64,000 nucleotides of DNA, from the NCBI GenBank assembly GCA_964016885.1, contig OZ024748.1, positions 23,932,001-23,996,000 of the forward strand, written 5' to 3'. Origin of the DNA: Eledone cirrhosa (taxonomy: Eukaryota). This document shows, one piece after another, positions 24,111-41,113 of the stretch. The translations under genes and the position numbers were made by a program. The notes below the pieces were generated by a model. That model saw nothing but the letters and a program-made list of their open reading frames with translations. It was not told the origin of the DNA and ran no database searches. The first letter of the stretch is position 1; each line of letters begins with the position of its first letter.

Positions 24111-24145
<35 letters not shown>

Positions 24146-24146
24146 G

Positions 24147-24196
<50 letters not shown>

Positions 24197-24321
24197 AACT
24201 GGGGAAAATCGACTAACTTTTTAAATTGCATTTGTGATAACATTTTACACGTTTTTATTGTATGTAAACTTCCCCCTTTGTATTTGTCCCCTTCTTTTGT
24301 GCCCCTGTGGCTAATAAAGAA

Positions 24322-24322
<1 letters not shown>
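24197..24322 (+). mobile_element. Tx1 copy 1: 3'UTR-only fragment
   Basis: Matches the last ~125 bp of copies 2 and 6. Confidence 0.9.
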
Positions 24323-38900: not shown

Positions 38901-39075
38901 GAGGTCCGGCAACTTCCTCTCTGGCCATAGTCTGGTCTACTTCTTCCGATATCACTTCGGAAGAAGGATAAGAATGGAGAGAGAGGTGCTTGGCCACAGG
39001 CAGTTTTATGAAAGGTGGGTGATAGTGGCGAGAATGGCTCGTGTAAATGGGCCTTCTCTGTATACCATCCTGTAG
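35908..39075 (+). CDS. Tx1 copy 7 ORF2 with in-frame ~90-codon deletion removing the endonuclease SDH motif
   Basis: 1055 aa; EMLTVG-SRL-AIKSEDVARVL replaces EMLMVGYSDH..AIRSGDVARVL; RT YADD and CCHC intact. Confidence 0.95.
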   Translation: MDVLRVGCLNARGLGSTWKQAKLLNDLRSCSINVMVICETRISVVRQLAPTFDDFEVHASLCQPGGGGGVVVLLQKHLGLAVQVVHSDPGGRLLVLDVGSSESAALRLVAVYSPFGAERPDFFQRLETFLGTSRSLLLAGDWNDILDARWDYAGACPNRGACNRLKGLLDRFNLVDRYRLDFPTVPTWTWRNHSGQSRSYLDRFLVRSKDRDILSCPEMLTVGSRLAIKSEDVARVLASRTALNQFFDAKHEGCVIRSKIRALGNEGAKAVGWARVTEAKSGNRSTIRSLQDEDGRVIREPKQMCEAFQRHFARLFGGGEGPGGGVDFGPYLDGLLRLSSEEAESCEGPISADEIGDALSQCSRRKSPGLDGIPYELYLAMPVFFSELLEAVYCNWQQNGRIPCSVTKGVVTLVRKDENKGDSINNFRPITLLNTELKILAKVLAKRLALVVGGLVGDAQTCAIPSRSIHDNLHLMRYIIERVGNKPGFGGALINLDQSKAFDRVDHGYLDAVLAAAGFGPVFRCWITALHSNHICSRIKVNGYLSKPFEIIRSIRQGCPLSSLLYVLTLEPLLRKLELLQGIPLEPGLSKAVSAYADDVTVMVSTDSEIEAIGTLLEDYERLSGAKLNREKSIGLQLGTWRGRPMPPDGVVGHWTEGPVKLLGVWFGPDLQVEKNWNEVTNKVFALTQKWAKCKLSLKGRAEVANIYIASVTYYRLTVVPCPKETLTTMERMLFQFLWKKRPPMVRRSICCQQPSKGGLGMPWLMMRRHALRLRHLQVFLTGQPVWAPFVKRAFPRLVSLTELQSWIKQRSGKLGDWHTECAQALRALWQAGRAIGRESTSSFYRGLVASRGDDTLGESLDMEEDELASLFGRTFGPGPMDNFQKSLAWQCYRGTLPVRERLYRHGRPGRDPSKKICPRCVRHEETIAHALVQCPGVAHLWGYAERLLSRVAPIKLTAESVMTIKPPPLFTKEAKAVFLCVIAMLKEVVWWTRLKGLRSGNFLSGHSLVYFFRYHFGRRIRMEREVLGHRQFYERWVIVARMARVNGPSLYTIL

Positions 39076-39319
39076 GTAAAGAAGTAAGGGAGAGGGGAGC
39101 ACCTTCTCCATGTGCTCCCCGGGCAAAGGATTGCACACTTTTTCGGGGGGGTGTGCAACCCCCATCACGTCCCCTCCCTTTTGAGGTTATTTTCGATTAT
39201 TTTCATGTTACACCCTTTTTACTCGATTATATGTAAACTCCCCCTTTGTATTTGTCCCTTCTTTTTATGCCTTTATGGTAAATAAAGAAATATATCTATC
39301 TATCTACCTATCTATCTAT

Positions 39320-41087
39320 TGTCAAGGTGAACGGCTACCTATCGGAGCCGTTCGCAATCATGCGTTCCATTCGACAGGGATGCCCTCTCTCCTCCATTCT
39401 GTATGTATTGACTCTAGAGCCACTACTACGGAAATTGGAGCTGTTGCAGGGCATCCCCCTAGAACCGGGACTGCGCAAAGCGGCGTCGGCTTATGCCGAC
39501 AACGTGACAGTAATGGTGTCGAGCACCTCGGAAATCGGGGTGATCGGTAACATACTGAAAGAATACGAAACGCTGACGGGAGCAAAACTAAACCCAGACA
39601 AGTCTGTCGGTTTGCAACTCGGTACGTGGAGAGGCAAACCGATGACATCCGACAGCGTCGTTGGACGCTGGACGGACGGACCGGTGAAATTGCTCGGGGT
39701 CTGGTTCGGTCCAGACCTCCAGGTGGAGAAAAACTGGAACGAGGTCACGGCCAAGGTGTTTGCACTCACTCAGAAGTGGGCAGAGTGCAAACTGTCCTTG
39801 AAAGGTCGAGCGGAGGTGGCGAACACTTTCATAGCGTCCGTCATCTACTACCGCTTGACTGTCGTGCCTTGTCCCCGTGAACACCTCGCCAAGATGGAAC
39901 GCATGCTCTTCCAGTTTCTGTGGAAGAAGCAGGCTCCGCTGGTGAGGAGATCCGTCTGCTGTCAGCACCCTTCCAACGGAGGGCTGGGAATGCCGTGGCT
40001 GATGATGCGCAAACATGCGCTGAGGCTGCGGCATCTCCAGGTATTCCTCACCGTTTGTGAGACAGGCTTTCCCACAGCTCGTCTCGCTAACGGAGCTGCA
40101 GTCCTGGGTGAAGAAAAGACCGAAAACGATGGGCGCCTGGCACATTGAATGCGCTCAGGCGCTCACAGTCCACTGGCAAGCGGGCGCAGCAATCAGTGGA
40201 GACTCCACTTCGACATTTTATAGAGGGATTGTACGTTACAAGGGCGACGACGTGCTCGGAGAGACTCTGGGCGTCGAAGACGATGAGCTCACCAGTCTGT
40301 TTGGTAGGACTTTCCGCCCGGGACCTATGGACAACTTCCAGAGGTCCCTGGCCTGGCAGTGCTACCGAGGAGCTCTACCGGTTCGTGACAAGATCTACAG
40401 GCACGGACGCCCTGGCAGGGATCCTTCCAAGAGGACGTGTCCAAGATGTGCGCAGGACATTGAAACAGTTTTGCACGCAATTGTACACTGCCCGGGCGTA
40501 AGCGACCTGTGGAACTATGCATAACAACTGCTGTCGCGTATGGGACAAATACAGTTGACTGCCGAGTCCATAGTAAGGATCAAACCGCCAGACTCTTTCA
40601 AAAACGAAAGAGAGGCGGTTTTCCTCTGTACGGTGGCTATGGTGAAATAAGTTATATGGTGGACGAGGTTGAGAGGACTGAGGACAGATGCCTTTCTCTC
40701 CGGACAACAATTGATTCCCTTCTTTAAGTATCACTTTAGAAGGAGAATCAGGGTGGAGAGAGAGGCACTGCACCCCAGTAAATTTACTGAAAGGTGGGTG
40801 AATGAAGCGAAAATGGCCCGAGTGATTGGGCCTTCTCTGTTTATAAGCCTGTAGGTTGAGGAAGAGAGCAAAAGGAAGAAAGGAGCACTTGCACAACACG
40901 CTCCTCGAGTTGAGGGTTGTTCTATCGACGGGGTATTAAACAACCCATTTGTGGCGCCTCCCCCCTATTGGGGATTTCGATTGTTGAAATTGTTTGTTTT
41001 TATATTTTTTACACGACTGTATGTAAAATCCCCGGCATGTCTTTGTATTGTCCCCTTTCTTGTTGCGCCCTTGTGGCTAATAAAGAA
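39320..41087 (+). mobile_element. Tx1 copy 8: 5'-truncated, degenerate (YADN, frameshift ~40055, internal stops)
   Basis: Begins VKVNGYLSEPF; ends GPSLFISL* at 40854; divergent 3'UTR. Confidence 0.92.
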
Positions 41088-41113
41088 ATCTATCTATCTA
41101 TCTATATCTATAT

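Follow-up and report, generated by a model that had tools for sequence, protein, structure and literature searches.

What brings eight related retrotransposons together on one strand, each set off from the next by the same four-base repeat? The question is raised by a 64,000-nucleotide (nt) stretch of the Eledone cirrhosa genome (GenBank assembly GCA_964016885.1, contig OZ024748.1, positions 23,932,001 to 23,996,000, forward strand), hereafter the window, whose own numbering is used throughout. The + strand of positions 24197-41090 carries eight related copies of a non-LTR (long terminal repeat) retrotransposon, bounded and separated by nine (TATC)n tracts. We consider it probable that a retrotransposon lineage of the L1/Tx1 group, equipped with an apurinic/apyrimidinic endonuclease (APE), inserts preferentially into (TATC)n and in one orientation. 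A preliminary description of this locus had proposed strand-specific targeting of (TATC)n/(GATA)n. At the array itself this is well supported by the tract at the left edge, the lack of nesting, the fixed register of the 3′ ends and uneven decay among the copies. Two further TATC-type junctions are present in public sequencing reads, and specificity for (TATC)n across the genome is likely.

Array layout and shared 3′ ends

In all eight copies, the 3′ end reads AAT(A)3-5GAAA, followed by two variable bases and then by TATC in one register. The two bases are TC, TA, CA, GT, CT, TA, TA and TC in copies 1 to 8, and no copy in the array ends in poly(A). The pattern AATAAA-N0-2-GAAA-NN-TATCTATC has eight matches in the window, one per copy and all inside the array, and 0 of 100 shuffles contained a match. 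The preliminary description had the copies ending in AATAAA(A)GAAA and running directly into (TATC)n without poly(A). The motif and the missing poly(A) stand, but the transition is not direct, as two variable bases intervene every time.

Together, the nine tracts sum to about 470 nt of the 17,003-nt array (2.8%). The 46,997 nt outside it contain a single run of at least three TATC units (16 nt), with none on the opposite strand. The rest of the 64-kb window holds no further copy of the family, and no copy is inserted in the body of another. Under a crude model of random insertion, the probability of finding no nesting is 1e-11, rising to 1.4e-5 when the most generous order is assumed, to be multiplied by 1/128 for the shared strand, and the model is blind to the locus having been picked for its look. 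These observations bear on passive accumulation, in which copies would insert without specificity and persist where genes are few and repeats many, an idea put forward for Waldo-A/B, found near CA repeats (PMC3812793). Microsatellites and other mobile elements are indeed plentiful in the window. However, with no family copy elsewhere in the window, TATC rare outside the array, and neither nesting nor strand mixing within it, passive accumulation is disfavoured and seems scarcely credible.

The (TATC)n noted previously ahead of the first copy is confirmed as a tract of 21.5 units, and upstream of this tract our pattern search of the window finds no 3′ end of an element. Thus, TATC was present at the site before the first copy arrived. 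This result matters for a rival account in which the element encodes (TATC)n as the tail of its RNA and its endonuclease has little specificity, such that pairing between tail and target favours priming in TATC. Many solo copies with unique 5′ flanks would then be expected elsewhere. If the tail alone were responsible, the first copy should likewise have a unique 5′ flank, and TATC is seen instead. In addition, Bov-B and other long interspersed elements (LINEs) that end in a repeat tail are seldom flanked by that repeat (PMC13295347), whereas the array copies have TATC on both sides. A tail would nonetheless account for the constancy of register across all eight copies, two variable bases included, for the occurrence of the same two bases in copies 2 and 6, and for a total tract length that exceeds one ordinary tract, from which it follows that repeat was added. 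We judge the tail-driven account unlikely, and note that roles for (TATC)n as target and as RNA tail are compatible; the fixed register suggests that UAUC may already form the end of the RNA.

The features of the array are as follows.

24111-24196 (+): left (TATC)n tract, 21.5 units including one TGTC, with TGTC/TG units before it
24197-24324 (+): copy 1, 5′-truncated to the end of the 3′ untranslated region (UTR), group of copies 1, 2 and 6, three extra bases at the 5′ junction
24325-24381 (+): (TATC)n spacer between copies 1 and 2, 14 units
24382-24762 (+): copy 2, 5′-truncated, 2-nt microhomology with the flank
24763-24780 (+): (TATC)n spacer between copies 2 and 3, 4.5 units
24781-25781 (+): copy 3, 5′-truncated, group of copies 3, 4 and 5, one internal stop, 10 extra bases at the 5′ junction
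25782-25843 (+): (TATC)n spacer between copies 3 and 4, interrupted, 15.5 units
25844-26101 (+): copy 4, 3′ UTR only
26102-26155 (+): (TATC)n spacer between copies 4 and 5, 13.5 units
26156-31951 (+): copy 5, apparently full length, with 5′ UTR, open reading frame (ORF) 1, ORF2 and 3′ UTR
26374-28225 (+): copy 5 ORF1, one CCHC knuckle, broken by a stop and a frame change
28250-31687 (+): copy 5 ORF2, 1145 amino acids, uninterrupted, with APE endonuclease, reverse transcriptase (RT) and C-terminal CCHC
31688-31951 (+): copy 5 3′ UTR, predicted hairpins, terminal AATAAAAGAAA+NN
31952-31996 (+): (TATC)n spacer between copies 5 and 6, 11 units
31997-33709 (+): copy 6, truncated within the RT, remaining ORF2 open, 3-nt microhomology with the flank
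33710-33768 (+): (TATC)n spacer between copies 6 and 7, 14.8 units
33769-39292 (+): copy 7, apparently full length, ORF1 broken, ORF2 at 35908-39075
39293-39319 (+): (TATC)n spacer between copies 7 and 8, interrupted, 6.8 units
39320-41090 (+): copy 8, truncated within the RT, the most decayed, with a frame change and two stops
41091-41113 (+): short (TATC)n tract at the right end, which decays into TATA ahead of a SINE-like (short interspersed element) repeat

Subfamilies, truncation and decay

Over their last ~650 nt, the copies form four identity groups: copies 1, 2 and 6 (96.6-99.7%), copies 3, 4 and 5 (89-94%), copy 7, and copy 8. Identity between groups is 57-78% over this stretch and 73-86% over a common 725-nt stretch of ORF2. 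This agrees with the earlier view of eight + strand copies from at least four diverged subfamilies. Copies 5 and 7 are apparently full length and the other six are 5′-truncated, each at a different point. Decay is uneven, with two stops and a frame change in copy 8, one stop in copy 3 and none in the ORF2 of copies 5 and 6, a pattern in keeping with separate insertion events.

Segmental duplication was rejected as the origin of the array, since the copies differ and so do their 5′ ends, and assembly duplication was rejected because near-identity is limited to copies 2 and 6. The prior claim of independent insertions is supported by the 5′ ends, subfamilies and decay, except perhaps for copy 2, which matches the final 381 nt of copy 6 at 99.7% identity. 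Judged by sequence, this piece alone could conceivably be a local duplication from the copy 6 end. The two bases preceding TATC are the same in these two copies and different in copy 1 of the same group.

The match between copy 2 and the end of copy 6 is also in line with models that dispense with repeated targeting, in which the array arose by RT template jumps between co-packaged RNAs, by read-through transcripts spanning several neighbours, or by unequal recombination between TATC tracts. Jumps onto RNAs ending in UAUC would yield head-to-tail TATC joins, and a second tandem junction is present in read run X22 (see below). However, the four subfamilies, with their 73-86% ORF2 identity between groups, and the uneven decay point to separate times of arrival, every 5′ end is different, and the leftmost tract still requires a prior TATC site. 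Models of this kind are consequently highly unlikely.

Encoded proteins and classification

In copy 5 ORF2, the endonuclease (about amino acids 1-240) carries the motifs LNARG, CEAR, AYAP, GDWN, YLDR and SDH, the RT motif YADD lies at amino acid 686, and the CCHC motif occupies amino acids 1008-1025. Pfam identifies Exo_endo_phos, RVT_1 and zf-RVT in ORF2, the last below its own cut-off, and no other family. The best match in the PDB is human L1 ORF2p (8UW3 and others; E 1e-48), with R2 at 1e-19. The human protein shares the endonuclease-RT order and aligned catalytic motifs, but its element ends in poly(A) and prefers TT/AAAA (PMC13295347). Overall, the array elements display the characteristics of the L1 group: two ORFs, an N-terminal APE endonuclease, an RT, a C-terminal CCHC, no RNase H, and frequent 5′ truncation (six of eight copies) with fixed 3′ ends.

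Copy 5 had been proposed to supply an intact endonuclease. Its ORF2 is open and the catalytic motifs are present, but the element is not fully intact, since ORF1 is interrupted by a stop codon (27493-27495) and, near 27750, by a shift of frame. Copy 5 also departs from nearly all aligned reads at several sites, including the non-synonymous endonuclease codon 59. In copy 7, ORF2 is about 90 codons shorter through an in-frame loss that took away the endonuclease SDH motif.

Tx1 elements carry an ORF1 of the RRM/CCHC type, in contrast to the coiled-coil type of vertebrate L1. The ORF1 of the array elements is of the RRM/CCHC type, with a CX2CX4HX4C knuckle in copies 5 and 7 and Atlas look-alikes that are zf-CCHC/RRM (ZCCHC3-like) clusters (0.89-0.92, a lead only); copy 5 ORF1 has no Pfam match. 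The internal stops of copy 5 (27493-27495) and copy 7 (35030-35032) both fall just past the zinc knuckle. When the two copies are aligned, about 18 nt separate the stops, and a conserved coding stretch follows each. They are probably the result of separate decay in CAA-rich DNA, but ORF1 may be a real two-part frame. Aligned reads skipped the ORF1 stretch that holds the stop. An AGGTA(A/G)GT motif resembling a splice donor overlaps the ORF1 stop in both long copies (28220-28228 and 35869-35877).

The nearest named protein, from the octopod Argonauta hians, is 62% identical over 44% of the query. We built a quick IQ-TREE phylogeny of 72 RT rows, without bootstrap and with long-branch warnings, from 57 tblastn rows minus 19 shorter than 280 amino acids (copies 6 and 8 among those dropped) and 34 protein rows taken from 72 protein hits. 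The window copies form their own branch with unnamed relatives of 40% identity, with a Shimodaira-Hasegawa-like approximate likelihood ratio test (SH-aLRT) value of 100. This branch lies within a larger one, which includes the Keno-like metagenome relatives L004 and L008 and has values of 95 (37 rows) and 88 (34 rows); the 72 rows contain no labelled Tx1 or vertebrate L1 sequences. A neighbouring element with a restriction-like endonuclease (RLE; see below) gave no tblastn row for this tree. From these sequence comparisons, the array elements likely belong to the Tx1 clade.

An AlphaFold model of ORF2 (mean predicted local distance difference test score 55, predicted template modelling score 0.40) is too poor for the specificity loop and was not used. 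The predicted hairpins of the 3′ UTR consensus show two-sided change at 4 of 37 pairs in six sequences, and five single-sequence folds gave z-scores of -2.5 to +0.4, some of the folded segments clipping the first stem. The hairpins are a weak hint of a 3′-end recognition signal. The window has no Rfam matches.

Evidence from reads and other sequence sets

Public reads were aligned to copy 5 only, from 4 of 24 runs, and the junctions come from a listing of 24 loose-end rows (of 3,123 in all) and 15 joints (of 310). The array family is abundant in reads, and in runs X1 and X4 the summed depth, which does not equal copy number, climbs steeply toward the 3′ end. Near-identical pieces of copy 5 ORF1 also occur in runs labelled as other organisms (X4 and X6). 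Among the rows listed, at least two 5′ junctions are of the TATC type, and both are absent from the window. The first, in run X1, belongs to a copy resembling copy 7 that is cut near 31085, with CTATCTATGTCT ahead of the cut in three contigs. In the second, from run X22, a 3′ end is joined via TATC/TGTC units to a copy starting at copy 5 position 30643 (106 reads). That both legible junctions are of this type speaks against the tail-driven account, which would gain from any ends with other flanks.

Several observations weigh against targeting. The evidence comes from one locus that was selected for its appearance. The 5′ microhomologies, 2 nt in copy 2 and 3 nt in copy 6, are within chance, as two or more matching bases are expected in 20% of random cuts. 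All reads across the X22 joint share one start, and a library chimera is possible. Of 13 left-side loose ends listed, one is of the TATC type, eight are diverged element sequence as judged by eye, and four, all from run X6, are not TATC. These four fall where the sequence is rich in AAC or in AT, close to right-side loose ends, and resemble low-complexity matches; they may instead be short copies with unique flanks, as the tail-driven account would have it. Finally, a protein-profile search of metagenomes confirmed 54 of 107 candidates, distant relatives on short contigs, and none of the 54 has three or more TATC/GATA units nearby, so the trait has so far been seen in the window lineage alone. 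Such loci are too distant to bear on what this lineage targets.

The 3′-end pattern has no match in viral contigs or in prokaryote genomes, and the protein profile gave no confirmed locus among 85 candidates in viral sequences. Three metagenome relatives have noteworthy flanks. In L004 (4675-4885) and L008 (5815-5977), poly(A) is followed by partial U2 small nuclear RNA (snRNA) sequence, as in Keno, and L016 (9202-9356) ends beside U1 snRNA sequence and may be a U1-targeting L1/Tx1 element.

A possible mechanism

By analogy with known target-primed reverse transcription, the ORF2 protein would bind its own RNA near the 3′ end, the endonuclease would nick the (GATA)n strand, and the RT would copy the RNA from the nick. 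If targeting is accepted, we lean slightly toward a transcript that continues beyond AATAAA-GAAA-NN and takes in a few units of UAUC, through which it would pair with the nicked GATA strand. The proposed pairing would explain both the fixed register and the absence of poly(A). For R2Ol, the start of reverse transcription is reported to be set by annealing between RNA and target (PMC6795142). The register would also be compatible with a precise nick to which two untemplated bases are added. Each insertion would divide one tract in two, and because repeat is left on both sides, later insertions could land at the same locus and the array would build up. Such self-seeding growth is plausible. The ~470 nt of tract may derive from RNA tails, site duplication or slippage; within a perfect repeat, the limits of target-site duplication or truncation are not definable.

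Neighbouring elements in the window

A decayed RT element occupies 19503-23591 (+), 500 nt from the array. It matches Pfam RVT_1, and by eye it has a C-terminal CCHC and a PD-(D/E)xK-like motif; presumably it is R4/Dong-like. Tracts of (ACAT)n flank it on both sides (19427-19502 and 23592-23810), making it a candidate for a second element that targets microsatellites, from an unrelated clade. Dong is described as targeting (TAA)n (PMC3812793). A 276-nt segment at 19151-19426 (+), with no second copy in the window, lies between two (ACAT)n tracts and is possibly a short or truncated element in ACAT repeats.

Beyond the right end of the array, a Helitron-like non-autonomous element recognized by eye (41335-41850, +, single copy in the window) starts with TCTATCTATATAAT and ends with a GTGACCC/GGGTCAC hairpin and then CTAG. 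A SINE-like repeat of ~200 nt has at least eight copies on both strands (41112-41330, 41878-42046, 15701-16317, 49685-49873 and 3013-3720). It starts in ATA-rich sequence, three copies are in tandem at 15.7-16.3 kb, and one adjoins the right end of the array. Fragments that by eye resemble the GIY-YIG endonuclease ends of Penelope-type elements are found at 13568-14272 (+) and 43096-43689 (-). Minisatellites of 66 nt (14 copies) and 107 nt (5 copies), together with very long degenerate (AAC)n/(GTG)n arrays, occupy 1744-2682, 4033-4566 and 43488-47930.

Comparison with known systems

Kibi and Koshi, teleost members of the Tx1 clade, insert in (TC)n and (TTC)n, respectively (Kojima and Fujiwara 2004, as cited in PMC3812793 and PMC4494074). 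Like the array copies, they are APE-type L1/Tx1-group elements in a microsatellite with TC on the sense strand of the element. By its target, the array falls outside this lineage, the repeat being (TATC)n in an octopod rather than (TC)n or (TTC)n in fish. The crocodilian Tx1-1_Crp group, placed near Kibi and Koshi, inserts in (TTCC)n/(TTTC)n (PMC4494074). These families share the preference for four-base microsatellites but differ in having a pure pyrimidine strand as target and ancient copies. The same source calls a Tx1 family target-specific when one sequence type makes up more than 20% of its genomic flanks; in the window, 16 of 16 flanks are of the TATC type, all from one locus.

The U2-adjacent, poly(A)-ended L004 and L008 resemble Keno, a Tx1 element that targets U2 snRNA. 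They share the SH-aLRT 95 branch of the RT tree with the array but differ in target, in their poly(A) tail and by an RT identity of ~37%. SART and TRAS belong to the R1 clade. They insert in telomeric repeats, as does Tx1-1_ACar, a telomere-specific member of Tx1 (PMC10088271), and like the array they produce mosaics of element and repeat through repeated insertion in a short tandem repeat. However, their targets are telomeric, whereas the array lies in an interstitial microsatellite and has no sign of a host role. Tandem insertions have also been described for SINEU-3 (PMC4494074) and for Utopia, and (TG)n specificity for Togen (PMC4640811).

The microsatellite-type targets listed in PMC3812793 are ACAY, AC, TC, TTC and TAA; TATC is not among them, and the available parts of PMC8967140, PMC3747384, PMC9341512 and PMC13295347 contain no TATC target. 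None was found for such elements in the literature searched, which lay apart from Repbase and Dfam, and these may already record the family with its target. In Octopus vulgaris, 80 L1-Tx1 families account for 56 Mb, and 13 of them have 421 recently active insertions (PMC13282606). The array element may well be among these families, for which the available text of that paper, supplement included, makes no mention of targets or of TATC/GATA.

Implications for microsatellite-specific retrotransposons

Most likely, the array behaves like Kibi, Koshi and the crocodilian Tx1 elements, a known behaviour, here in another host and at another repeat unit. The current view of how such elements work is left unchanged. 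A broader proposal is doubtful, though worth stating: a lineage of independent octopod origin might both target (GATA)n and make it, with an RNA that reads on into UAUC units and primes by pairing on the nicked GATA strand, leaving more repeat than it found. It would then be a main source of GATA microsatellites and growing arrays in octopod genomes, which it would share with the unrelated RLE element in (ACAT)n, the two partitioning microsatellites as niches. GATA repeats are common in animal genomes, and a (GATA)n-specific enzyme, if real, would offer studies of site-specific retrotransposons a useful point of comparison. The targeting mechanism of microsatellite-specific elements has been called not well understood (PMC3812793), and four subfamilies that share a register at one locus could allow endonuclease specificity to be separated from RNA-DNA pairing. 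With the array, (TATC)n/(GATA)n joins the few target units known for microsatellite-specific APE retrotransposons, and their hosts gain a further group.

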